Positions 2,623 through 51,714 of a stretch of 64,000 nucleotides of DNA are shown here, in pieces. The stretch lies in NCBI GenBank assembly GCA_963674745.2, contig CAXXDV010000001.1, forward strand, positions 2,400,001 through 2,464,000, read 5' to 3'. Each line of letters opens with the position of its first letter. Position 1 is the first letter of the stretch. The position numbers and the translations under genes were made by a program. The DNA comes from Desulfosudaceae bacterium (GTDB lineage Bacteria; Desulfobacterota; Desulfobacteria; Desulfobacterales; Desulfosudaceae). The notes beneath the pieces are model-generated. The model ran no database searches, was not told the DNA's origin, and was given only the letters and a program-made list of their open reading frames with translations.

Positions 2623-4029
2623 TTATTTTTTTGTCTGCCGGTAGGCCTGCGCGACGTTGACCATGGCCGGTGCCCAGGACGGGGTGCCCAGGGCGTGTAA
2701 GTGGGTGTATGCGGCCAGAACATTGCGGCTGCAAAGCCCGTCTCGTTTATTCTCAAACCCTTTACCCCGGACGGTCGAAAAGACCAGATCCGCGTCTTTC
2801 CCCCCCCAGGTCAGGATTTTAGAGTAGCGGAATTCATGGCCTTTTAATTCGGTCCCGATTTCAAAAAAAGGGTTGTCACTGTCAACCGTTGATATGGTAT
2901 ATCCGTGTCCGACCGGTTTCTCAGAGATGCCGAAGGAAACCGGGAAAATATCACACATGGGGTAGGCCGTATTGTCCATGATGATCTCTTTTCCAAGATA
3001 GATCAGGCCGCCGCATTCGGCATAAACAGGCAGGTATTGTTTCGCCAGTTGTGCGAGTTGCTGCCGGAAACCCTGATTGTCCGATAATTGACGGGCGTGG
3101 GTTTCCGGAAACCCGCCGCCGAGATAAAGGCCGTCAATATCATCCGGCAGTGTCGCGTCTTTTACAGGACTGACAAAAACCAGGTCCGCGCCGGCGGTTT
3201 CAAGGGCCTCCAGGTTATCAGGATAATAAAACTGGAAGGCCGAATCCCGGGCAACCGCAATCTTCGGACGGTTGCTGCCGGAATTAGCGGATATTGGCGG
3301 AAGAACAGTGTCCGGTGCGGTCCTTTCGGTTGCCCGGTTTGCTATATCCATTACGGCCTCAAGATCAATGTGCCGTTCGGCTATCTGCGCCGCGGCCGTA
3401 ATTGCCTCGTGGGCCCATCCATGTTCCGGGGTCGGTACCAGGCCCATATGACGTTCCGGAAAGTCACCGGCCGTCAGCTTGGGGATGGAACCAACGACCG
3501 GAATCCCGCAGTAATGCTCGATGGATTGACGCAGGATGGTCTCGTGGCGTTTGCCAGCGACACGATTTAATACGATCCCGCCAATGTTAATGCGTTGATC
3601 AAACGCCATGCAACCGCTGACAACCGCCGCGCAGGTGCGGGTGGTCTTGGTGCAGTCCAGACAAAGAATAACCGGCGCGCCCAGTGTGTGGGCGATATCG
3701 GCGGTGCTGGTTTTCCCCTCGATGTCGATACCGTCAAAAAGTCCACGGTTGCCTTCAATGACAGCAATATCGCAGATCCGCGTGTGATTAAAAAAAGAGG
3801 CGAGCAGAGGCTCGGTGGGGATGAAAAAGGTGTCGAGGTTGTAACAGGGAACGCCGGCCGCCAGAGAAAGCCAGCCGGCGTCAATATAGTCCGGCCCCTT
3901 TTTGAAAGGGGCGACTTGTTTTCTTTGATTCCGCAATGCCGCGGTTATACCAATGGCGACCGTACTCTTCCCTGCGCCGCCCCTTAAAGCTGAAACAATC
4001 AGCCGGGGGCAGGTGATATGCTCGTGCAT
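2623..4029 (-). CDS. dsrN: DsrN/CobB siroheme (cobyrinate) a,c-diamide synthase
   Basis: GKSTV P-loop, FKKGPDYID, ERHMGL, LGGGFPE, AECGG, GHEF; follows dsrABD. Confidence 0.9.
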   Translation of the reverse strand: MHEHITCPRLIVSALRGGAGKSTVAIGITAALRNQRKQVAPFKKGPDYIDAGWLSLAAGVPCYNLDTFFIPTEPLLASFFNHTRICDIAVIEGNRGLFDGIDIEGKTSTADIAHTLGAPVILCLDCTKTTRTCAAVVSGCMAFDQRINIGGIVLNRVAGKRHETILRQSIEHYCGIPVVGSIPKLTAGDFPERHMGLVPTPEHGWAHEAITAAAQIAERHIDLEAVMDIANRATERTAPDTVLPPISANSGSNRPKIAVARDSAFQFYYPDNLEALETAGADLVFVSPVKDATLPDDIDGLYLGGGFPETHARQLSDNQGFRQQLAQLAKQYLPVYAECGGLIYLGKEIIMDNTAYPMCDIFPVSFGISEKPVGHGYTISTVDSDNPFFEIGTELKGHEFRYSKILTWGGKDADLVFSTVRGKGFENKRDGLCSRNVLAAYTHLHALGTPSWAPAMVNVAQAYRQTKK

Positions 4030-4054: not shown

Positions 4055-4100
4055 GATGGCTTCGTAAAAAGTTAACTTTTTACGTTGCCATCCAAATGTT
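4055..4100. repeat. Minimal palindromic copy of the GATGGCTTCGTAAAAAG repeat family
   Basis: GATGGCTTCGTAAAAAGTTAACTTTTTACGTTGCCATC; same ends as the element at 10341-10491. Confidence 0.75.
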
Positions 4101-4114
4101 TATTTGCGACAGGT

Positions 4115-4354
4115 TTAGTCTTCGTGCTCGGCGGCCGCCTGTTTGCCGGTTCCCGCCAGTCCGTACATGGTGGTGCTGCCGCTTGACCAGTATTCGAGAA
4201 CGCCTTCTTCAACGGCTTTATTGACATATTTTTTGGCTTCCCGCGGTTTCATGTCCAGCATCTTCTGAAGGTCGGAAAAGTAAAACTTTGATTTTACTTT
4301 CTGCTTTTTCATTAATTCATCAGTCAAGATTTTGTTGGCTTCTGCTTGCTCCAT
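4115..4354 (-). CDS. dsrD: Dissimilatory sulfite reductase protein DsrD
   Basis: KSKFYFSD and LEYWSSGSTTMYGL motifs; AAGGAG RBS 7 nt before ATG at 4354. Confidence 0.95.
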   Translation of the reverse strand: MEQAEANKILTDELMKKQKVKSKFYFSDLQKMLDMKPREAKKYVNKAVEEGVLEYWSSGSTTMYGLAGTGKQAAAEHED

Positions 4355-4367
4355 TGTCAAGCTCCTT

Positions 4368-4426: not shown

Positions 4427-5587
4427 TTATTTGATGGCGTTGGTGAACTTGAACTGGCTGGTTTGTCTCCAAGTATAGTACGCCGGATCACGGAAGTCAT
4501 CAATCAGGTGATGGCTAAATTCCAGATCACATTTCTCGAAGAATTTTTCCCAGCCGATTCTTTCGGCCCATTCACCAAGACGTTCGTATTTACGGGCGTC
4601 CTTGGCATAAACCTCGACAATGCGCTTGATACAGTCGGTCAGTTCCGGCCAACGGGGCACATTGTTGGGCAGAAAAGCCACGGCCACCTTGGAAAACATG
4701 GGCGGGCTGACCCGGTTGGATACCTTACCACCAACCATGACCACCACGCCGTCGCCTTCTTCATCTGCCAGCGGCATGGCCGGGCACATGGTGTAGCAGT
4801 TACCGCAGTACATGCAGCGATCAGCGTTGACCTCGACGCTCTTTACTTCCGTGCCGTCGACGTCGACCTTTTTGGGCTTGATGGCCGCGGTCGGGCAGGC
4901 GGCAACCGCCAGCGGAATTTCGCACATTTTATCCATGTACTCATGCTCCACGACCGGCGGTTTACGGTGATAACCCACAAAAGAGATATCCGAGCAGTGA
5001 ACCGCGCCGCACATGTTCAGGCAACAGGCCATGGAAACCCGGACATGGGCCGGCAGGGTCATGCTCTGGAAATACTCGAACAGTTCATCCATGCAGGCCT
5101 TGACCGGACCGGAAGCGTCGGTCGCCGGGGTATGACAGTGAATCCAGCCCTGGGTGTGAATAATATTGGTAATACCGGCACCGGTACCGCCGACCGGAAA
5201 TTTCAGGCTGCCGCCGTCAAATTTTCTTTCGGCCAGGTCTTTTACCAGTGCTTCCATTTTTTCTTTGCTGTCGGTCATAAATTCCACGTTGTTTCGCGTG
5301 GTCCAACGCACATAACCGTCGCAGTATTTATCCGCGATATCACAAATTTCACGGATGTGGGTAACGCTCATCAGGCGGCAACCGCCGGCTCTGACGGTGT
5401 AGACCTTGTCACCGGACTCGGCCACATGGACCAGGACGCCGGGTTCCAGGATTTGATGATACTCCCACTTGCCCTTGTTTTTCGCAATGACAGGTGGATA
5501 AAAGTCTGCAAAGTTTTTCGGGCCGATATCGGTAATTCGATTTTCCATCGGCTTGTCTGGGTTGTATCCAGAAGATATAAAAGCCAT
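4427..5587 (-). CDS. dsrB: Dissimilatory sulfite reductase beta subunit
   Basis: [10 protein letters not shown] start, [37 protein letters not shown]. Confidence 0.99.
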
Positions 5588-5599
5588 AATTCTTCCCCC

Positions 5600-6919
5600 T
5601 TATCGTTTGTGTCGCTCTCTGTAGAGTTTAATGTCTTTGTCAAAACCGCCCGGAACCTCGTCTTCTTTCCAGAAGATGTACGGGTTGGTCCTTGGTTCCT
5701 GAACATGCTGCGGCATGGCCGGGATGTTTGTCGCTTCCAGCAGCTTCTGGAAGCCCTGGCGTTTCATCAGTTCGCCCAGCCGTTCGCGGTTTTTGCCTTC
5801 TTCCATCCACCAGTCCCAGATCGCTTCGATGACTTCTTTGATCTCATCGTAGGGTTCTTCAACCTTGACAAAGGGGACAAGCAGGGAACCCATCTGGGCA
5901 CCGTCGAGAATCGGCGCCTTGGCACCGGCCAGAATGGACAGACCTTTTTCCTTGCCGGGTTTCAAGGCTCTGGGCATGACATTGATGCAGTGCATACAGC
6001 GGGTGCAGTTGCTGTTGTCGATTTCCAGTGTGCCGTTTTCATACTTCATGCATTCGGTGGGGCAGATATCGATGACTTCTTTCTGAATATCAAAAGGACC
6101 CCAGTCGCCGCCGGCATGAGAGCCGCCGTTGGCCGGAAATTCGGGATCGCCGTCGACATAAGCTTTGACTGCGGCCTGGTCGATCTGGATGTCGTCTCTC
6201 CAGGTACCGATAAAGGAAAGGTCGGCCCGGGCGATGGAGGCCACACAGCAGTTGGGGCATCCGTCAAATTTGAATTTGAATTTATAGGGGAAAGCCGGGC
6301 GGTGAAGCTCGTCCTGGTATTCCATGGTCAGGTGCGTGCACAGTGCCTGGGTGTCGTAACAGGCGTACTCACAGCGGGCCTGGCCGATACAGTCGGCCGG
6401 TGTCCTCAGGTTGGAGCCGGAGCCGCCCAGATCCTGTTCGAAGTTGTGGGTCAGTTCAAAAAAGATTTCTTCCAGCTGAGGCGTGGTGGTGCCCAGGAAG
6501 ATGATGTCGCCGGTGGAGCCGTGCATGTTGGTAACGCCGCTGCCGCGGAATTCCCACAGATCGCAAAGCTTTCGCAGGTAGTCAGCCGTGTAAAAATGTC
6601 CTGACGGCTGGTTGACCCGCATGGTGTGGAAATGGGCCACGCCCGGAAACATTTCCGGCTGATCACAGTACCGGCCGATAACGCCGCCGCCGTAACCGAA
6701 TACGCCCACGATGCCGCCGTGTTTCCAGTGAGTTTCCTTGTCCTTGTAGGAAAGTTCAAGAACGCCCAGCAGGTCATCGACCGCATCAACAGGGACCTGA
6801 AACTCGACATTGTTTTCGTTTTTCGCTCTTGACTCTGCCTCCTGCTTCAGGTCGGACACAAAGCTCGGCCATGGTCCGGACTCAAGCTCATCCAGCATAG
6901 GAGTCTGGTGTTTTGCCAT
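5600..6919 (-). CDS. dsrA: Dissimilatory sulfite reductase alpha subunit
   Basis: THWKHGGIVGVFGYGGGVIGRY, CIGQARC, FPYKFKFKFDGCPNCC, CTRCMHCIN. Confidence 0.99.
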   Translation of the reverse strand: MAKHQTPMLDELESGPWPSFVSDLKQEAESRAKNENNVEFQVPVDAVDDLLGVLELSYKDKETHWKHGGIVGVFGYGGGVIGRYCDQPEMFPGVAHFHTMRVNQPSGHFYTADYLRKLCDLWEFRGSGVTNMHGSTGDIIFLGTTTPQLEEIFFELTHNFEQDLGGSGSNLRTPADCIGQARCEYACYDTQALCTHLTMEYQDELHRPAFPYKFKFKFDGCPNCCVASIARADLSFIGTWRDDIQIDQAAVKAYVDGDPEFPANGGSHAGGDWGPFDIQKEVIDICPTECMKYENGTLEIDNSNCTRCMHCINVMPRALKPGKEKGLSILAGAKAPILDGAQMGSLLVPFVKVEEPYDEIKEVIEAIWDWWMEEGKNRERLGELMKRQGFQKLLEATNIPAMPQHVQEPRTNPYIFWKEDEVPGGFDKDIKLYRERHKR

Positions 6920-14566: not shown

Positions 14567-14604
14567 GCATTAAAACCGGCCAAGGCCGGTTTTAATGCTT
14601 TTTT
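14567..14604 (+). terminator. Intrinsic terminator
   Basis: GCATTAAAACCGGCC-aa-GGCCGGTTTTAATGC followed by a T tract. Confidence 0.8.
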
Positions 14605-36849: not shown

Positions 36850-36878
36850 AAGCGGGCCAAAATGGCCCGCTTATTTTT
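36850..36878. terminator. Hairpin between convergent genes
   Basis: AAGCGGGCC-aaaat-GGCCCGCTT followed by T-rich sequence. Confidence 0.65.
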
Positions 36879-40083: not shown

Positions 40084-40117
40084 AAGGCCCGCCTGAGGCG
40101 GGCCTTTTCTTTTTTTT
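40084..40117 (+). terminator. Intrinsic terminator
   Basis: AAGGCCCGCC-tga-GGCGGGCCTT followed by a T tract. Confidence 0.85.
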
Positions 40118-42536: not shown

Positions 42537-43379
42537 ATGAACAATGCACAATTTACGGGCGCGTCCCGATATGTCCTGGACAGCGAGCTGGCCAATATTG
42601 TCAATGTATCCATGACGCTGGAGATGCCCCTGCTGCTGAAAGGCGAACCCGGTACCGGCAAGACCATGCTGGCCTATGCCATTGCAGAAAGCCTGGGCAT
42701 GCCGCTGATCGTGCTGAACGTCAAATCAAGCATGAAACTGGTTGAAGCGCTTTACCAGTACGACACCCTGACCCGGCTCAACGATGCCCGGTTCGGCGAT
42801 TCTTCCCGTGATGTCAGCAATATTGAAGACTATATACGTATGGGCAAGATAGGCCAGGCGTTTACGGCAGAGGAGCGCACCATTTTGTTGATCGATGAGA
42901 TCGACAAGGCGGACAGCGATTTCCAGGATGATATGCTGGATGTATTGGACCAAATGACCTTTGATATCGTGGAAGTTGATCGCACCGTTGCCGCTCGTCA
43001 TCGCCCGGTCATCATCATTACCTCCAATGCCAAAAAAGACCTGTCCGATCCTTTTCTGGGCCGGTGTAATTTTCATCATATCGCCTTTCCGGATCCCAAA
43101 ATGATGCGCAAAATTATCGGCGTCCATTTTCCGGAAATCAGTGACGAGCTGATGAGAAATGCCGTGGAAACGTTTTACCGGCTCCGCAAACTGGAGTCCA
43201 TTGAGAAAAAACCGGCTACCCGTGAACTGATCAACTGGATCCGGGCCTTGAAGGTCGACCCGGACTTCAAACCCAAGCAGTTGGCCAAGGGGAATATCCC
43301 TTTTCTGGGTATTCTGTTCAAAAAGAGCAGGGATTATGAACGGGCCGCTCAAGCCGTGGACCGGGTGCGATCATACTAG
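42537..43379 (+). CDS. MoxR-family AAA+ ATPase
   Basis: GEPGTGKT Walker A, LLIDEIDKAD Walker B, ITSN. Confidence 0.9.
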   Translation: MNNAQFTGASRYVLDSELANIVNVSMTLEMPLLLKGEPGTGKTMLAYAIAESLGMPLIVLNVKSSMKLVEALYQYDTLTRLNDARFGDSSRDVSNIEDYIRMGKIGQAFTAEERTILLIDEIDKADSDFQDDMLDVLDQMTFDIVEVDRTVAARHRPVIIITSNAKKDLSDPFLGRCNFHHIAFPDPKMMRKIIGVHFPEISDELMRNAVETFYRLRKLESIEKKPATRELINWIRALKVDPDFKPKQLAKGNIPFLGILFKKSRDYERAAQAVDRVRSY

Positions 43380-43391
43380 GCAGGAACAGCC

Positions 43392-44582
43392 ATGTTTATT
43401 GATTTTTTCTACCGGCTAAAGGAAATCAATGTGCCGGTGACGCCAACGTCATTTATGACCCTTCATCGGGCTTTTGCCGCCGGTCTGGTCAATTCCCTGG
43501 ATGAATTTTACACCACCAGCCGGACCATTCTGGTCAAAAGCGAGCGGTATTTTGACCTGTTTGACCAGATGTTTGCCCACTTTTTTAAAGGTGCCGAGCT
43601 GCCTGAAGACGACGACTGGGAACTGGATGAGATCGTCCGAGGCCTTTTGGAAGAGTGGCTTAAAGATCCCAAAGAACTGGCCGATATGATGGGCATGAGC
43701 CCGGAGGAGCTGGCCAGAATGACACCGGATGAGGTGGTCGAATATTTCAAACAGCGGCTCAAAGATCAGACCGAGCGCCACGATGGCGGCAATCGCTGGA
43801 TTGGAACAGGCGGGACTTCGCCGGTCGGTCATTCCGGTCATTTTCCCGGCGGTATGCGCGTGGGCGGATCCTCCAGTGGCAAGTCCGCGGTCAAGGTCGC
43901 CATGGAACGCCGGTATAAGGATTATTCCCGCACCGGTCCCTTGACCCAGGCCCAGGTTGGGGAGGCCTTAAAGCGGCTGCGTAACATGATTCCCTCCGGC
44001 CCCATGGATCAGGTTAATGTGGACAAGAGCATTTATCAGACCGTTCGCAACGGCGGGGAAATCGAAATCGTGTTTGACCGTAGCTTAAAAGACCGCCTTA
44101 AGGTGATCCTGGCCATTGACAACGGCGGCTGGTCTATGGATCCGTATGTTGAGGTGGTGCAGACGCTGTTTGATTACGCCAAGGCCCAGTTCAAAGACGT
44201 AAAAACCTATTTTTTTCACAACACCATCTATGATAATTTGTGGAAGGATGCCACCCGCTACAAGGAACCCAGCAAAGTGGCCGACTTTGCCCGCCTTGAT
44301 CCGGAGACCCGCCTGGTTATTGTCGGTGATGCCAGCATGGCGCCCTATGAGCTCATGGCCCGGGACGGTTCCATTTATATGGATGTTAGAAGCCCGTTTT
44401 CCAGCATTGACCAGTTACAGTTTCTGGCCAATCTTTTCCCTCACCGGGCCTGGCTGAATCCCGTTCCCGGCCGCATGTGGAATTATACCCAGACCATCAA
44501 TATCATCCGCCAGGTGTTTCCCATGTTCGAGTTGTCGCTGGACGGGCTGGAAGAGGCGGTGACGCAATTAATGTCCAAGTAG
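43392..44582 (+). CDS. VWA-domain (CoxE-like) partner of MoxR
   Basis: WIGTGGTSP, D.GG.SM, FFHN, VGDASMAPYEL, WLNP. Confidence 0.85.
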   Translation: MFIDFFYRLKEINVPVTPTSFMTLHRAFAAGLVNSLDEFYTTSRTILVKSERYFDLFDQMFAHFFKGAELPEDDDWELDEIVRGLLEEWLKDPKELADMMGMSPEELARMTPDEVVEYFKQRLKDQTERHDGGNRWIGTGGTSPVGHSGHFPGGMRVGGSSSGKSAVKVAMERRYKDYSRTGPLTQAQVGEALKRLRNMIPSGPMDQVNVDKSIYQTVRNGGEIEIVFDRSLKDRLKVILAIDNGGWSMDPYVEVVQTLFDYAKAQFKDVKTYFFHNTIYDNLWKDATRYKEPSKVADFARLDPETRLVIVGDASMAPYELMARDGSIYMDVRSPFSSIDQLQFLANLFPHRAWLNPVPGRMWNYTQTINIIRQVFPMFELSLDGLEEAVTQLMSK

Positions 44583-44663
44583 CCTGCCGGCTCCTTCGAC
44601 ATATCAAATACGGCTGTTTCAGAATCGTGCTATCCGTCGATATCTTGTTCGACTATCCTTTAT

Positions 44664-44707
44664 TGGGTGCCACGGGCGAACCCCGTCGAAGACGGGGTTG
44701 CCCGTGT
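44664..44707. repeat. REP-like hairpin, GGGTGCCACGGGC family
   Basis: TGGGTGCCACGGGCG-AACCCCGTC-gaa-GACGGGGTT-GCCCGTGT; same head and tail as the units at 2490-2598. Confidence 0.75.
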
Positions 44708-44721
44708 TGGGTTTTCTTTAT

Positions 44722-44997
44722 AAGGAATTAAGCTATTTTTTATCATACTTTTCTTTGGCGCAAAGAAAAGTACGCAAAAGAAACATCGCCCGGCAGCTTG
44801 GCCTTCGGCTTCCCTCGCTTGGTCGCTTTTTTCGGCGCGTGCAGGAACTCGCTGGGAATTCTCATTGAAGTGCTTTTCTCAGCACCTGACGACACGTCTC
44901 TTTGTCGTGTTGTACCACCATGCGACCGCTCAAACAGCCTGCCCGCTTCCCCCGAAAAAACCGCCCGCGCTCGGCTGCGCTGCAACGGGCCGGGGGC
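44722..44997 (+). repeat. Structured repeat of about 275 bp, copy 1
   Basis: TACTTTTCTTTGGCGCAAAGAAAAGTA hairpin; CAGGAACTCGCT...CGCTCAAACAGCCTG; direct repeat of 45090-45364. Confidence 0.85.
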
Positions 44998-45089
44998 ATT
45001 TGCGTTTATCATTATTTTTGTGGCAGATTGTTATGTCGTTACGTAGTGTGGAAAAGCGACAGCGCATCCCCCAATTTGTGCTTTTTTAG

Positions 45090-45364
45090 AGGAATAATAT
45101 CTATTTTTTATCATACTTTTCTTTGACGCAAAGAAAAGTATGCAAAAGAAACATCGCCCGGCAGCTTGGCCTTCGGCTACCCTTGCACGGACGCTTTTTT
45201 CGGCGCGGACAGGAACTCGCTGGGGATTCCCATTGAAGCCGTTTTCTCGTATCTGCCTATTCTTCTCTTTGTTGTATGGCTCCAGCATGCGACCGCTCAA
45301 ACAGCCTGCCCGCTTGCCCCGAAAAACCGCCCGCGCTCGGCTGCGCTGCAACGGGCCGGGAGCA
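45090..45364 (+). repeat. Structured repeat of about 275 bp, copy 2
   Basis: Near-identical ends to copy 1 with a diverged middle. Confidence 0.85.
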
Positions 45365-45529
45365 AGTCCGATTATTTTTCAGTCTACCGCCAGGTCACAA
45401 GATTGACTTCATCAACCGGGTGCGTTAGATTTTTTTAGCTTTCAAGTTGAGGGGGAAGATGAAAATAAGCGGAAAGTTTTTATATTATTCTGTTGGCGGT
45501 CCATAAGACGTAATCCTAGCGAGATAATT

Positions 45530-45937
45530 ATGACAAAAAAAGAGATGGCAGCTCGAATCAGGGAACTTGAAGCCGAAAACAGAAGGCTAAGGCTTGAGTT
45601 AAACAAGCTAAAAAGAAAGAAAGAGGGCTATTATACACTTGCAGATCAGTTTGATAGCTCAGTCAATCTAGGTGAATTTACTAAAACCCTTCCTTCGGTT
45701 ATACCGGAGCATAAAAAATGGAGCGCCAGCGATTATCCGGTTGATTGGGAGCCCGAACAAAAAGCGTATGATTATTTGGTGACATTCTGGGAAAATTATC
45801 CTGTTTCACAAAGTTATTTTTCTAACGTTCGAGGGGGGCAGTCATTTTATAAGTATCTAAAACGAAACGATTTATTTAAGTTAATACCTGATTCGTTTCA
45901 GCTGGAACTAAAAAAACGTTTAGGCAAAATCAAATAG
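45530..45937 (+). CDS. Hypothetical protein with N-terminal coiled coil (AT-rich)
   Basis: 135-aa ORF in AT-rich DNA; RIRELEAENRRLRLEL heptads; no family recognised. Confidence 0.6.
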   Translation: MTKKEMAARIRELEAENRRLRLELNKLKRKKEGYYTLADQFDSSVNLGEFTKTLPSVIPEHKKWSASDYPVDWEPEQKAYDYLVTFWENYPVSQSYFSNVRGGQSFYKYLKRNDLFKLIPDSFQLELKKRLGKIK

Positions 45938-45950
45938 TTCATTTTTTCTC

Positions 45951-45978
45951 TTGACATTATGTACTTACTTAAGTACAT
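45951..45978 (+). promoter_or_regulatory. TTGACA -35 box followed by a palindromic operator
   Basis: TTGACA at 45951; ATGTACTTA-CT-TAAGTACAT perfect 9-bp IR at 45959-45978; -10 box not clear. Confidence 0.55.
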
Positions 45979-46033
45979 ATATCCCATGGCCTGTTTAAAA
46001 TGATTTTTAACTTTTTAGGGAAAGGAGATAAAA

Positions 46034-46276
46034 ATGAATGAAATTCAAAACAAAATATTGTTATTGATGAACGAGCGATCGAAAAAGGGTATAGAAAAAA
46101 TTGCACCGGTTGATTTGGGTAGAAAGCTCAAGATTCCACAGAGAAAAATTAGCGGTGAATACAATTCTTTAGTTGCTCAGCAAGAATTGGCCTACTGGAG
46201 TTCGGGAAGTTGTAATTATTTAATGCTGAAAAAGGACCATGATAAACAAATGCGACTTGATGAATCTGGTTGCTAA
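46034..46276 (+). CDS. Divergent DsrD-like winged-helix protein
   Basis: Ungapped 19/54 identity to the window's DsrD from NKIL to YWSSGS; AAGGAG RBS. Confidence 0.75.
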   Translation: MNEIQNKILLLMNERSKKGIEKIAPVDLGRKLKIPQRKISGEYNSLVAQQELAYWSSGSCNYLMLKKDHDKQMRLDESGC

Positions 46277-46356
46277 ATTACAGTTGGCCGGGCAGGGGTA
46301 AGTGATTACGACAGCGTTTTTTACCAGCCCGCCCTGAATTCTTCGTTACCCCTGCC

Positions 46357-46450
46357 CGAGGGAAGCCGGAGGCCAAGCTGCCGGGCGATGTTTCTTTTGT
46401 TTACTTTTCTTTGCGTCAAAGAAAAGTAAAATAAAAAAAGATTAATTCCT
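46357..46450 (-). repeat. Inverted partial third copy of the structured repeat
   Basis: Reverse complement of the first 90 or so nt of copies 1 and 2 (TACTTTTCTTTGACGCAAAGAAAAGTA..CATCGCCCGGCAGCTTGGCC). Confidence 0.85.
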
Positions 46451-46477
46451 CAAAAATCAAGAAGGATGAATCGTTAC

Positions 46478-46675
46478 CTATTCATCCTTCTTGATTTTTT
46501 CGTGGGCCGGTACGCCGTACACCTTCTTGTACGACCGGCAGGCCGGACACAACGTTTCCTCCAATTTTACGAAATTATAAAGTACGCCTTCGCCTTTTTC
46601 CCGCGCCCGGGTACAGACCGGGCATGTATCTTTGCAAAAATGGGCCAACTTCTTTGTTGTATTGCTGTGCGCCAT
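46478..46675 (-). CDS. Small cysteine-rich hypothetical protein, possibly metal-binding
   Basis: CKDTCPVC and CPAC; strong AGGAGG RBS. Confidence 0.7.
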   Translation of the reverse strand: MAHSNTTKKLAHFCKDTCPVCTRAREKGEGVLYNFVKLEETLCPACRSYKKVYGVPAHEKIKKDE

Positions 46676-46746
46676 TGGACACCTCCTGGATAAAACAGAT
46701 TATCTGGTTTTTAATGTATTTGATATTTCCGTAAAAATACTGTTTT

Positions 46747-47565
46747 TTAATCGTTGGTCCGAAACCCCCGCATTTTTTTGACATGCTGGCGGAACAGCCA
46801 CTGCACGATTCCCGGGCTGATTCGTTGTAACAGGTATAGAAATTTAGCCAGCAGGGTCACCACGATGACGGCTTTGTTTCGTTCCACGCCACGTATGATC
46901 TGCTCCGCACATCGTTCCGGCGGCATTCCCCTGGGAAGGGTTTTCAGAGCTTCGTCCCTGTCAAATCGGACGACCTTGCTTTTGGTATAAATGGGGGTTT
47001 CGATGATGCCCGGGCAGACCACGCTGGCTTTTACCCCCAGGGCTGCACCTTCGATTCTCAGTCCCATTGTCATGCCGACCACACCAAACTTGCTGGCCGT
47101 ATAGGATAATTCACCGGGAAAAGGTACCAGCCCGGCCAGGGAGGCGGTATTGACGATGTGCCCGAAGCCCTGCCGCGCCATGACGGGGTAGGCGGCACAG
47201 ACACCATGCACGACACCGTACAAATCGACATCGATTACTTTTTTCCAGTCGTCACAGGAAACGTCCCGGGCTTCGCCGCCGACGGCGATGCCGGCATTGT
47301 TGAACATGTAATCCAGCCGCCCATGTCCGGCAACGGTGTTGTCAACCAGTTCCCGGACGGCGTCTTCGTCGGTCACGTCCAGAGTTGTTCCCGTTGCCCG
47401 GCCATCGGTTTTGACGATTTGTTCGGCGACCTGGCTGACCTGTTGCCCGTTAATATCAGCCAGTACCAGTATGGCGCCTCTGGCTGCCAGTTTTTCCGCC
47501 AGGGCCCGACCGATACCGGAACCGGCACCGGTGATGATGGCGACTTTACCGTCAAACATATCCAT
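46747..47565 (-). CDS. SDR-family oxidoreductase
   Basis: TGAGSGIG, NNAG, NTAS, YTASK. Confidence 0.93.
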   Translation of the reverse strand: MDMFDGKVAIITGAGSGIGRALAEKLAARGAILVLADINGQQVSQVAEQIVKTDGRATGTTLDVTDEDAVRELVDNTVAGHGRLDYMFNNAGIAVGGEARDVSCDDWKKVIDVDLYGVVHGVCAAYPVMARQGFGHIVNTASLAGLVPFPGELSYTASKFGVVGMTMGLRIEGAALGVKASVVCPGIIETPIYTKSKVVRFDRDEALKTLPRGMPPERCAEQIIRGVERNKAVIVVTLLAKFLYLLQRISPGIVQWLFRQHVKKMRGFRTND

Positions 47566-49361: not shown

Positions 49362-50810
49362 TCACAACACCAGATCCTCCACAAAAGCCCACAACTGGTT
49401 CAGGTTCCGGCAGGGACGGACTTCATGGCAGTATCTTCGAAACAGGCGCATATCGCTGTCTCCATTGTCCCAGGTGACCAGAGACTCGGGGTTGAGCCAG
49501 ATAATGCGCCGGCATTTTTTGCGCAATTCATTGAGCACATCGACCCGCGGATTCATATAATTGGAGCGGCCGTCGCCGATGATGATCATTGTTGTCCGTC
49601 GGGTCAGCTCATGTAAATGGGATTCTCGGAAACGCAGAAAAGTTTCCCCGTAATCCGTGGGCACCTCCGTGGAAAGTCGCTTGTCCGAAAAGATTCTTTC
49701 TATGGCGGTGTTGATGTCATGCTCCTGGAAAAGGTCGGAAACGTCAGCCACGCCCGCCACAAACACATAACTCTTTACACCGGAAAAGCAGTCCTGCAGG
49801 GCGTAAAGTACAGACAGCATGAATCGGGCGGTCGACCAGACGGATCCGGAAACATCGCACAGGGTAACAATTTTGCTTTTTCTGGGGGGATGGGTTTTAA
49901 ATGCCAGGGTCATGGGGATCCCCTGGGAGCGGTTGGCCCGGCGCAGGGTGGTGGCCACGTCCAGCGCGCCTCGGCGTCGGATGGCCTGGCGGCGTGAGGC
50001 CACGTCTTTTAATTTATTTACCAGGCGGTCGATGATGTCCCGGATGGATTCGATTTCCGCAGGAGACAGGTTGGCCAGGGGCGTTTCACCGATGGTCTGA
50101 AAACGCTGCTGGGTGGCATTGACCTCACGAAGTCCGACATTGTCGGGTTGGGGGTCATGCCGGAAGAGGTCATCGGCCCGGTCCAGAAGCGACAGGAAAT
50201 GGTTTTCAACGGCCCGCCGCGTCACCGGATCGTCAGCCAGTCGGGTTTCGGCCAGTTCCCTGGAGCGGGTCCGCATGTGATTGATTTTCAGCATGATGTC
50301 CAGCCGCTGGGACATCTCTCCCAGGTTGGATCTTAACGGTACCTGCCGGGCCTCTTCATCGGCATTATTGAGCTCCCGCAGAAAGTTCAGCCAGGGTTGG
50401 GGCCGGCCGCTCAAAAAGTCCAGCAGAGCCGCGCTGACCGGGTCTTCTTCACCTGAGCCGGCCTGCAGATTCCGGTGTTGATCCCGCAAATTGTTTAAAA
50501 TGTCCTTGGTGCCGGCTGCGGTTATGTCCGACAGAGAATTGTCATCACCCGATTCCATGGCCAGGTCGTGGAAAAAGAGCTGGTAAAGAGCTTCAAATTT
50601 GGGCTGATCGCGTTGGGCCTTGACAAAATTGGCGCCCAGCAGGGTTTTGAATTCTGATTCCGCCAGCGGATCGATCAGGCAGAGTTGATTAACCGTGTCA
50701 AGGATTTCAGCGGTGGAAACAAAAAGTTCCGAAGCCCGGCAGCAGTCGGCAAAACGCAGGACGGTATCAAGCAGATGATTCGTCTGCGGTTGGACGGCCA
50801 CATCAGCCAT
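49362..50810 (-). CDS. VWA-domain CoxE-like protein
   Basis: LCDVSGS MIDAS, TDYG, IIGDGRSN, IWLNPE. Confidence 0.85.
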   Translation of the reverse strand: MADVAVQPQTNHLLDTVLRFADCCRASELFVSTAEILDTVNQLCLIDPLAESEFKTLLGANFVKAQRDQPKFEALYQLFFHDLAMESGDDNSLSDITAAGTKDILNNLRDQHRNLQAGSGEEDPVSAALLDFLSGRPQPWLNFLRELNNADEEARQVPLRSNLGEMSQRLDIMLKINHMRTRSRELAETRLADDPVTRRAVENHFLSLLDRADDLFRHDPQPDNVGLREVNATQQRFQTIGETPLANLSPAEIESIRDIIDRLVNKLKDVASRRQAIRRRGALDVATTLRRANRSQGIPMTLAFKTHPPRKSKIVTLCDVSGSVWSTARFMLSVLYALQDCFSGVKSYVFVAGVADVSDLFQEHDINTAIERIFSDKRLSTEVPTDYGETFLRFRESHLHELTRRTTMIIIGDGRSNYMNPRVDVLNELRKKCRRIIWLNPESLVTWDNGDSDMRLFRRYCHEVRPCRNLNQLWAFVEDLVL

Positions 50811-51714
50811 TGACCACCTCATTGATGCAGGGGATGACACGGTCGGCATCGGCCTTGTTTTTACAGAGCACATCCAGGGTGGTTTCCAGCGCTGCCGGCG
50901 TGATCTCGTTAATGTCCAGGGCCATCAGGGCCCGGGCCCAGTCCAGTGTTTCGGAAATACAGGGCCGTTTTTTTAAATCCAGCCGGCGCAACCGGCCGAC
51001 GATATCGATCATTTTTGCCAGCAGAATTCGGTCGATTTCCGGTATTCTTTTTCTGACGATGGCCAGTTCGGTGTCCGGTTCCGGATAGTCGATATAAAGA
51101 TAAAGGCAGCGGCGTTTTAAGGCGTTGCTCATGTCGCGATAACTGTTTGACGTCAGAAAAACAGCCGGCCGGGTGGTGGCTGTCTTGGTGCCGATTTCAG
51201 GGATGGTGACCTGGAAATCGCTGAGCAGTTCCAGCAGAAAAGCTTCAAATTCCGGGTCGGCCTTGTCCACTTCGTCAATCAGCAGGACGACCGGCTGCTC
51301 TGATAAAATGGCCTGGAGCAGCGGCCGTGGCTGGATAAACCGTTCAGAAAAAAAGGCGTCTTCTTCAGCGGCGATTTTGTCCACGGCCTGGGCAATGGAA
51401 TCCGTGTCAGCCAGCAGGGAACCGATTTTCTCCCGGACCATCTGGGTATAGAGGAGTTGTTTGGCATATTCCCATTCGTACAGGGCCTTTGATTCGTCCA
51501 GTCCCTCGTAGCATTGAAGCCGAATCAGCCGGCGGCCGGTGGCGGTTGCCACTGCCCGGGCCAGTTCGGTTTTCCCGACGCCGGCCGGACCTTCCACCAG
51601 TATCGGTTTTTCCGTGGCCATGGCCAGAAAGACAACGGTGGCGATTTTGGGTGATGGAATATAACTGCTGGCCTGAAGCCGACGGGTGACATCATTAATG
51701 TCATTAAATATCAT
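50803..51714 (-). CDS. MoxR-family (CoxD-like) AAA+ ATPase
   Basis: GPAGVGKT, RLQCYEGLD, LLIDEVDK, LKRRCLY. Confidence 0.92.
   Translation of the reverse strand: MIFNDINDVTRRLQASSYIPSPKIATVVFLAMATEKPILVEGPAGVGKTELARAVATATGRRLIRLQCYEGLDESKALYEWEYAKQLLYTQMVREKIGSLLADTDSIAQAVDKIAAEEDAFFSERFIQPRPLLQAILSEQPVVLLIDEVDKADPEFEAFLLELLSDFQVTIPEIGTKTATTRPAVFLTSNSYRDMSNALKRRCLYLYIDYPEPDTELAIVRKRIPEIDRILLAKMIDIVGRLRRLDLKKRPCISETLDWARALMALDINEITPAALETTLDVLCKNKADADRVIPCINEVVNG

Follow-up and report, generated by a model that had tools for sequence, protein, structure and literature searches.

Does a genome that already carries dsrD in its dsr operon hold a second member of the DsrD family, and if so, does this second protein still serve DsrAB or has its fold been put to another use? 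The question is raised by a 64,000-nucleotide stretch of contig CAXXDV010000001.1 from a Desulfosudaceae bacterium (assembly GCA_963674745.2, positions 2,400,001 to 2,464,000; hereafter the window, in whose own numbering positions are given), where an open reading frame (ORF) of 80 amino acids had been proposed, in what we call the original prediction, as a divergent DsrD-like gene with its own palindromic operator. DsrD has a winged-helix fold and is an allosteric activator of DsrAB; it is regarded as a single-copy operon gene with one job, and serves as the marker by which reductive and oxidative Dsr metabolism are told apart in genomes and metagenomes. To our knowledge, no function other than that of a highly expressed allosteric activator in contact with DsrAB is known for DsrD. 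We consider it established, by sequence comparison and structure modelling, that the ORF at 46034-46276 is a real gene and a divergent member of the DsrD winged-helix family. The features on which the argument turns are the following, L001 denoting the locus of Desulfatibacillum alkenivorans DSM 16219 that carries the same gene pair in the same order.

46034..46276, forward strand: DsrD-like gene of 80 amino acids with an ATG start; winged helix plus C-terminal helix; Cys60 and Cys80
46022-46027, forward strand: ribosome-binding site AAGGAG, 6 nt ahead of the DsrD-like ATG
45951..45956, forward strand: -35 hexamer TTGACA, the same in L001
45958..45979, no strand: perfect palindrome TATGTACTTA-CT-TAAGTACATA, in half-site form ATGTACTTA-N2-TAAGTACAT; operator-like, filling the promoter spacer and the -10
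45974..45979, forward strand: candidate -10 hexamer TACATA within the right arm of the palindrome, at a spacer of 17 nt (16 nt in L001)
45530..45937, forward strand: upstream partner gene up135, of 135 amino acids, with a leucine-zipper-like helix at residues 3-29, a disordered linker and a basic, conserved C-terminal domain

The ORF and its AAGGAG ribosome-binding site were both present as the original prediction had it. The alignment of its product to the canonical DsrD of the window is likewise free of gaps, but it contains 19 identities in 56 positions rather than in 54 (BLASTP E=8e-6); the blocks NKIL, DL, R and L.YWSSGS are seen in it, as are the replacements of KFYF by KIAP and of TTMYG by CNYLM. 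The predicted homology to DsrD and the winged-helix fold are established on the combined evidence of Pfam, a profile comparison with the PDB, hhalign, AlphaFold2 and Foldseek. The protein scores 24.1 bits against Pfam DsrD (PF08679; E=4.5e-5, residues 36-66 only), where the gathering cut-off is 24.2 and the canonical DsrD of the window scores 94 bits. A word-indexed search returned only three relatives, each exactly 80 amino acids long and 73-78% identical; all three pass the cut-off (29.1-33.9 bits) and carry the label PF08679 in the protein database. When 1.84 billion representatives were searched exhaustively with a profile, 18 proteins were returned at E<=1e-3, and 18 of the 18 relatives scanned score at least 24.2 bits (24.7-60 bits). 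The profile of the relatives matches DsvD (1ucr) over residues 1-67 at E=1e-11, and hhalign against 22 canonical DsrD sequences gave 96.3% at E=1.8e-9. The AlphaFold2 model, made from an 18-sequence alignment, has a pLDDT (predicted local distance difference test) of 89.7 and consists of helix 3-17, a short strand, helices 25-32 and 36-48, a hairpin 52-57/60-65 and an additional helix 66-78; Foldseek superimposed it on DsrD 1ucr chains A and B with template modelling (TM) scores of 0.74-0.80 and root-mean-square deviations (rmsd) of 2.0-2.3 A over 74-76 columns. Its other structural neighbours, from E=3.6e-4 upward, are the dimeric winged-helix repressors AdcR/MarR, CadC, SmtB, CzrA, HlyU and NolR, and the centromere binder AspA. 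The fold thus matches 1ucr with a Pfam score lying 0.1 bit below the cut-off, and we found no sign of neutral decay, as the homologues are intact at 80 amino acids; between the window protein and its three close relatives, 49 of 80 columns are invariant, there are no truncations and the substitutions are clustered. No family other than DsrD was matched by the protein in Pfam at E<=10, and NCBIfam at E<=1 gave no match either for it or for the canonical DsrD. An early scan of genome contigs with a four-sequence profile (patterns MNEIQ[ND]KI and M[NH][ED]RSKKG) produced 42 stretches, none of which was a relative. Among the proteins met in these searches, P0006 (2865 aa) contains two stretches that match the DsrD-like profile (E=5.6e-17), and P0021 (239 aa) consists of tandem repeats of about 50 amino acids containing ELCYWNGGACRF.

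How far this protein has moved from the DsrAB partner can be judged against the canonical dsr operon of the same window.

5600..6919, reverse strand: dsrA
4427..5587, reverse strand: dsrB
4115..4360, reverse strand: canonical dsrD, our reference; the listed ORF starts at TTG, and the database form P0022 has 79 amino acids and starts MEQAE
2623-4029, reverse strand: dsrN-like gene after dsrD, giving the order dsrA-dsrB-dsrD-dsrN

The DsrD-like gene lies 41.7 kb from this dsrD, in line with the 41 kb originally given. It is not downstream of dsrAB but on the other strand, with its own promoter, its operator-like palindrome and an unrelated zipper-gene partner, while the canonical dsrD fills the operon slot. 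It has in common with DsrD/DsvD (PF08679; PDB 1ucr, 1wq2) the sequence homology, the winged-helix core and the length of about 80 amino acids, and its own sub-clade retains the L.YWSSGS wing; however, the wing of the window protein reads YWSSGSCN against the canonical YWSSGSTT. The strand motif K-x-K-F-Y-[FI], which we infer to be defining for DsrAB-linked DsrD from the alignments made here and not from the literature, is absent and has I23 and A24 in its place. The protein is basic rather than near-neutral, and it has an extra C-terminal helix where DsrD has a Gly/Ala-rich acidic tail. DsrD is without cysteines according to the covered part of PMC8794893, and the window protein has two, C60 and C80. 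The DsrD-like protein is without three features that accompany the role of a DsrAB partner, as its gene lies outside the operon, its F-Y motif is gone and it contains cysteine; with regard to the YWSSGSTT signature, it is ambiguous. A further perfect inverted repeat, at 4063-4084, stands just 3' of the canonical dsrD stop and may be a terminator or a regulatory site.

We built a tree of 67 rows from the window protein and its three close relatives, 12 representatives, 36 loci fetched in a second genome scan, and P0022 with 14 of 119 canonical DsrD matches picked at random; L029 was cut to 75 amino acids, and P0005, P0006, P0007, P0017 and P0021 were left out. Since the alignment has only 82 columns, many forks are unresolved. 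One branch, starred in our tree (99/95), unites nine of the 67 rows, namely, the window sub-clade of four, the D. alkenivorans protein L001, P0020, P0008, P0009 and P0011, and all dsrAB-linked DsrD and the other stand-alone genes sit across it. Placed beside canonical DsrD, as the original prediction had suggested doing, the window protein thus falls in a separate clade, which is not sister to the dsrD of its own genome. Its L001 homologue is 43% identical to it over the full length. For column statistics, we compared four groups, the nine clade members, 14 other stand-alone types, 26 Syntrophales-type and 30 Desulfobacterales-type operon DsrD, after removing L005 and L011 as near-duplicates. 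In the operon DsrD (n=56), F23 occurs in 96-100%, and Y24 and YWSSGS in 100%; in the nine-row clade, I (56%) is the commonest residue in place of F23 and A (44%) in place of Y24, and W55, S56 and S57 are down to 78%, 44% and 56%. Position 60 is T in 62-100% of the operon DsrD, with S in the remaining Syntrophales rows, whereas it is C in 44% of the clade, Cys replacing Thr60 in the window sub-clade; at least one Cys is found in seven of the nine clade members against none of the 30 sampled Desulfobacterales-type DsrD. The invariant residues of the clade are D27, L46, L52, G58, M64, L65 and D68. The clade is basic, with a median isoelectric point (pI) of 9.2 and a net charge of +4, while the other three groups lie at pI 5.7-7.9. 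The original prediction offered two functions, a modulator or antagonist of DsrAB and an autoregulated DNA-binding offshoot of the fold. That this basic clade has given up or loosened the motifs of dsrAB-linked DsrD leans away from the first.

The original prediction placed TTGACA and a perfect inverted repeat ahead of the gene. The hexamer was confirmed at 45951-45956, and the repeat is indeed perfect, with arms one base longer each than had been noted (10-2-10). It is unique in the window, even when three mismatches are allowed. Such a repeat appeared in 0.175% of 20,000 random draws of 96 nt of the intergenic composition. The window itself, however, contains eight distinct perfect inverted repeats with arms of at least 10 and loops of at most 4, where 30 Markov-1 randomisations gave a mean of 0.57, so the palindrome alone would be merely suggestive. 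What carries it beyond chance is that TTGACA and the 20-nt core ATGTACTTACTTAAGTACAT are identical in D. alkenivorans, where the core stands at 5922-5941; it was present in this one locus among the 36 fetched. The intergenic regions of the two genomes have only three conserved blocks, TTGACA, an identical 21-nt ATGTACTTACTTAAGTACATA that follows after 1-2 nt, and the ribosome-binding-site block AAAGGAGAT, the remainder being diverged. Three others of the perfect inverted repeats of the window lie at 14571-14594, 36850-36872 and 40084-40106.

The fetched loci also bear on the promoter. While 26 of the 36 are dsrA-dsrB-dsrD-dsrN operons (Syntrophales, Smithella and Desulfarculaceae), nine (L001-L007, L011 and L022) are without a dsrAB pair inside 6 kb. 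All ten stand-alone DsrD-family genes, the window gene included, are preceded at 63-119 nt by a perfect TTGACA, a spacer of 16-17 nt and a hexamer starting with TA. This type of promoter occurs at none of the 26 dsrAB-linked dsrD genes and is absent at L023; we therefore take the -35 to be a real promoter element. A scan for consensus sigma-70 promoters called none at 45951-45979, which is because the -10 TACATA with its 17-nt spacer is weak. Since the palindrome is identical in L001 and takes up both the spacer and the -10 in a promoter of the type seen at 10 of 10 stand-alone genes, we predict it to be an operator, with a geometry classic for competition with RNA polymerase. A palindrome overlapping the gene's own promoter is a feature of autorepressors, and here the palindrome, conserved in L001, stands between TTGACA and TACATA. 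The original proposal of a palindromic control element of the gene's own has thus held up, insofar as the element is a real, conserved cis element within the promoter of the DsrD-like gene. As RNA, the palindrome would fold into a hairpin of low stability (-8.2 kcal/mol, z -1.9) that lacks a U-run, and a terminator scan called no terminator there, so we rejected a terminator or RNA element as its primary reading, although it may act in this way on transcripts that read through from upstream. A search of 44400-46900 against Rfam at E<=1 gave sub-threshold matches only, the best being RsaD with 35 bits where 50 are required, and we dismissed these as chance.

The eight other stand-alone loci (L002-L007, L011 and L022; the two labelled ones are Myxococcota metagenome-assembled genomes and the rest unclassified ones, with the match near position 6000 in each) resemble the window gene in having no dsrAB within 6 kb, a perfect TTGACA-17-TAnnnn promoter and a C-terminal helix ending in ML-K-x-D-[YF]-[DE]. 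They differ from it in having no palindrome in the promoter spacer, their spacers being ordinary, and no up135-type neighbour, and they lie outside the nine-row clade; stand-alone types outside the clade keep YWSSGSTT (93-100%) and mostly Y24, and are acidic to neutral with a median pI of 5.7. The remaining locus, L023 (MGQK01000113.1, RBG_13_61_14), carries a stand-alone-type DsrD gene at 5842-6111, 176 nt upstream of dsrA, and its dsrN follows dsrB after 27 nt with no dsrD between; by its gene order this is an alternative operon position for DsrD function. Ca. Falkowbacteria carry DsrD alone according to the covered part of the DiSCo paper (PMC8477390).

The partner gene up135 ends 96 nt before the DsrD-like gene, and the product of the gene directly upstream of the L001 homologue is 66% identical to its own (84/127). 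No up135-type gene was found in the 35 other fetched loci. Its family counts 12 clusters, none of them named, the window protein and P0005 included; the family alignment (A6) has 48 invariant columns. Since the zipper spans three heptads with invariant L13, N17, L20 and L27, a dimer of up135 is plausible. The AlphaFold2 model reaches a pLDDT of 73, and a Foldseek comparison with the PDB and BFVD gave no fold match at E<=0.001. In 11 database members, the pI is 9.1-9.9, while the 149-aa reading in L001, which has a long N-terminal extension, gives 6.76. Against Pfam, the family gave weak coiled-coil matches only (DivIC in 11 and bZIP_1 in 10 of 12 members), and NCBIfam and the ESM Atlas yielded no usable lead. 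The segment SYFSNVRGGQSFYKYLKRN has to our eye some resemblance to a helix-turn-helix, a likeness that no tool supported. P0005, a metagenomic protein of 120 amino acids left out of the tree, is an in-frame fusion in which about 74 N-terminal residues belong to an up135 homologue and the 45 C-terminal ones to a DsrD-like protein. It is either a natural in-frame deletion across the intergenic operator-like region or an assembly chimera; natural or artefact, it gives the same adjacency and orientation of the two genes in a third source.

Judged from the two genomes, the two-gene cassette travels as a unit, since the flanking genes are unrelated between them: an AAA ATPase and a VWA-like protein on one side and a short-chain dehydrogenase/reductase (SDR) and a NUDIX protein on the other in the window, and a GTPase, an outer-membrane-like protein, topA and dprA in L001. 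The GC content is 37.7% in up135, 27.1% in the intergenic region and 35.4% in the DsrD-like gene, against 50.7% in the window and 50-57% in the flanking genes, and at third codon positions the GC content (GC3) of the cassette genes is 35%, whereas dsrD and the SDR gene, the two native genes that were measured, reach 57-64%. The original prediction had mentioned neither the partner gene nor the AT-rich, repeat-bordered nature of the cassette, nor the additional C-terminal helix of the protein, nor the stand-alone DsrD-family genes of other genomes. In 500-nt windows, an AT-rich islet at 45501-46500 (36.6-38.0% GC, against 47-59% either side) spans exactly the two cassette genes. The borders and outer elements of the cassette are the following.

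44714-45010 and 45082-45375, forward strand: left border of two tandem repeat copies of about 295 nt, 84-88% alike, each opening with a perfect 12-bp hairpin TACTTTTCTTTG-NNN-CAAAGAAAAGTA
45403..45431, forward strand: promoter-like site TTGACT-17-TAGATT upstream of up135, with 9 of 12 consensus matches
46289..46358, forward strand: 13-nt perfect inverted repeat CGGGCAGGGGTAA / TTACCCCTGCCCG, 44 nt apart, just past the DsrD-like stop
46357..46456, reverse strand: right border, an inverted partial repeat copy, 82 nt, 93% complementary to 44736-44817

The border repeat has no further copies in the window and no Rfam family, and may be a MITE-like (miniature inverted-repeat transposable element) or REP-like (repetitive extragenic palindromic) element marking the insertion site. 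The site at 45403-45431 counts as weak evidence only, because it is not conserved in L001. The 13-nt inverted repeat may be a structure of the transcript 3' end, and the terminator scan called nothing there. No dsr gene lies within 6 kb of the DsrD-like gene in either the window or L001, and no integrase or transposase was seen among the 11 neighbouring ORFs scanned. With tblastn, neither cassette protein matched anything in 72,556 plasmids or 50,697 phages, and a plasmid or phage origin was set aside on this ground.

Some features around the cassette are recorded for their own sake. A perfect hairpin with 20-bp arms and an 8-nt loop at 46452-46499 overlaps the 3' end of an ORF on the reverse strand (46478-46675) whose Cys-rich product of 65 amino acids (C-x3-C-x2-C ... 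C-x2-C) has no significant family match; the pair may represent a small zinc-binding protein and a terminator acting in both directions. The region is flanked by two pairs of an AAA ATPase (MoxR/CoxD-like) gene and a neighbour, at 42537-44582 on the forward and 49362-51714 on the reverse strand; Pfam VWA_CoxE matched only the neighbour in the second pair, the neighbour at 43392-44579 having no Pfam match at E<=1e-5.

What, then, does the DsrD-like protein do? We favour the reading that it is an operator-controlled, autorepressing DNA-binding offshoot of DsrD, although we give this somewhat less than an even chance. The palindrome would serve a repressor of two-fold symmetry as its operator, so that RNA polymerase would be blocked at the DsrD-like promoter; the binder would be a dimer of the DsrD-like protein itself, resulting in negative autoregulation; and the DsrD fold would here have been converted to a specific DNA-binding regulator, whose C-terminal helix might supply the dimer contacts by analogy with helix alpha-5 of ArsR/SmtB-type repressors. 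Self-binding is favoured by the winged-helix fold with a helix after the wing, by the basic charge of the clade and its loss of the motifs of dsrAB-linked DsrD, and by the co-occurrence of the operator-like palindrome with the nine-row clade. It is also favoured by matches to DNA-binding winged helix-turn-helix (wHTH) families, which are sub-threshold for the clade members P0009 and P0011 (HTH_45 and HTH_24/HTH_11) and above the cut-off for the relative P0017, a fragment outside the tree (HTH_24, 25.9 bits where 21.9 are required). P0015, outside the clade, has a sub-threshold match to the TBPIP winged helix.

However, several observations weigh against this reading. Nowhere do the four close homologues vary more than in the putative recognition helix 36-48, which shares only 5 of 13 residues between the window and L001 with only R37 near-invariant, while the operator-like core is identical at 20 of 20 positions. 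A sequence-specific reader is normally more conserved in its recognition helix, and self-binding is thus weakened by a helix that varies while the palindrome is the same in two distant genomes. By contrast, up135 is better conserved between these genomes (66% against 43%), basic and predicted to dimerise, which on sequence makes it an equally good candidate binder of the palindrome. The window protein falls in no DNA-binding wHTH family by sequence (Pfam E<=10), its sub-clade retains YWSSGS exactly, and the basic charge could partly reflect AT-rich codon usage. The DNA context for the nine-row clade comes from two genomes only, the window and L001. In the electrophoretic mobility shift assay of Ferreira et al. 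2022 (PMC8794893), the binding of DNA by canonical DsrD was only non-specific.

The same observations feed a different explanation, possible but rather doubtful in our view, in which the palindrome is bound by up135 or an unlinked factor and the DsrD-like product is regulated cargo that acts by protein-protein contact, as DsrD does, be it as a condition-specific isoform, a competitor or antagonist at DsrAB, or an activator of some other partner. The stronger conservation of up135 would run parallel to that of the palindrome, its three-heptad zipper and basic, conserved C-terminal domain would suit a regulator, and the separate strong promoter that lies between the two genes suits an arrangement in which a regulator precedes its target. 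Moreover, the wing LAYWSSGSCNYLML is invariant in the window sub-clade where helix 3 is variable, the same pattern as in canonical DsrD, and the non-canonical, stand-alone-type gene directly upstream of dsrA at L023 means that stand-alone-type DsrD variants can be dsr-linked. However, up135 matches no DNA-binding family or fold, the F-Y motif found in 96-100% of the 56 dsrAB-linked DsrD is absent and the SS turn is lost in 4-5 of the nine clade members, no dsr gene lies within 6 kb in either genome, and the cassette looks foreign to its genome by GC3. That foreign look, an AT-rich islet of two small genes (35-38% GC against 50.7%) between inverted repeat copies with flanking genes that differ between the two genomes, would instead suit a selfish cassette, that is, a toxin-antitoxin-like or mobile-element maintenance module in which up135 would be the harmful component or partner and excess winged-helix protein made from the internal promoter would neutralise it and repress the promoter. 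The sparse distribution (12 up135 and about 10 DsrD-like clusters among billions of proteins) and the internal promoter with a palindrome ahead of a putative DNA-binding partner agree with such a scheme, and its layout recalls that of toxin-first modules with an internal antitoxin promoter such as MqsRA and HigBA: two small genes of sporadic distribution and foreign base composition, with the putative DNA-binding partner second, behind its own promoter and palindrome. We nevertheless hold it to be quite improbable. Neither protein matches a known toxin or antitoxin family or fold, PADLOC gave no family for either at E<=1, and PHROGs gave none for the DsrD-like protein and only entries of unknown function for the N-terminal coiled coil of up135 (best E=0.0016), so that neither protein has a match in the two collections at E<=0.001. 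Pfam, too, offers only DsrD for the one and a weak coiled coil for the other; plasmids, phages and the 11 neighbouring ORFs gave nothing in favour of the scheme, and a gap of 96 nt is long for a toxin-antitoxin pair. That the gene is a decaying or functionless dsrD duplicate and the palindrome a product of chance might be argued from the Pfam score 0.1 bit below the cut-off and the eroded DsrD signature motifs. This we regard as highly improbable, as the four close homologues are intact at 80 amino acids with clustered rather than uniform substitutions, the fold model is confident, the ribosome-binding site, -35 and palindrome are conserved in a distant genome together with the partner gene, and the dsrD of the same genome is not the sister of this clade. 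Binding by a factor encoded elsewhere and roles outside those named are, taken jointly, unlikely.

Under the favoured reading of an autorepressing DNA-binding protein, the obvious comparison is with the ArsR/SmtB and MarR repressors (CadC 1u2w, SmtB 1smt, CzrA 1r1u and AdcR 5jls), which Foldseek matched to our model at E values of 3.6e-4 to 1e-2 and TMq of 0.6-0.7. The likeness consists in the helix after the wing and in a perfect inverted repeat with a 2-nt centre over the gene's own promoter; ArsR/SmtB operators have a 12-2-12 form. However, most of the structural matches have a large rmsd of 7-10 A, there is no significant sequence match, no metal-site motif was identified, and the DsrD-like protein is without the N-terminal helix of ArsR/SmtB. 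The gene thus resembles these autorepressors in layout but, by sequence, is not a member of either family.

We found no description of second or stand-alone dsrD paralogues in the literature covered, which included PMC8794893, PMC8477390, PMC10591310 and PMC10504309 without their supplements. The narrow distribution of the clade and its still putative function limit the weight of the finding, which nevertheless bears on how dsrD can be used as a marker. The original prediction warned that such a gene would confound that use, and all three close relatives do pass the Pfam DsrD cut-off (29-34 bits) and are thus countable as dsrD; calls based on hidden Markov models can therefore include probable non-activators of DsrAB. 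For the family, our sequence comparisons indicate that independently transcribed stand-alone DsrD-family genes exist, and that one clade of them is basic, sheds the DsrD motifs and comes with an operator-like site and a partner gene. This suggests that the DsrD fold now serves a different purpose, probably one of regulation, and offers a tractable case of the re-use of a small allosteric activator fold, in which the 20-bp, perfectly conserved operator-like site is a clean experimental handle. More specifically, it is conceivable, though we think it doubtful, that a DsrD-fold lineage has changed jobs to become the DNA-reading or switchable part of a horizontally mobile two-gene cassette with a novel-fold zipper protein, or else an operator-gated DsrD mimic competing at DsrAB. 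If the DsrD-like protein still touches DsrAB, the cassette may link regulation to sulfite reduction, and an operator-gated mimic of DsrD, if true, would be a transferable brake or switch on sulfite reduction for sulfate reducers.

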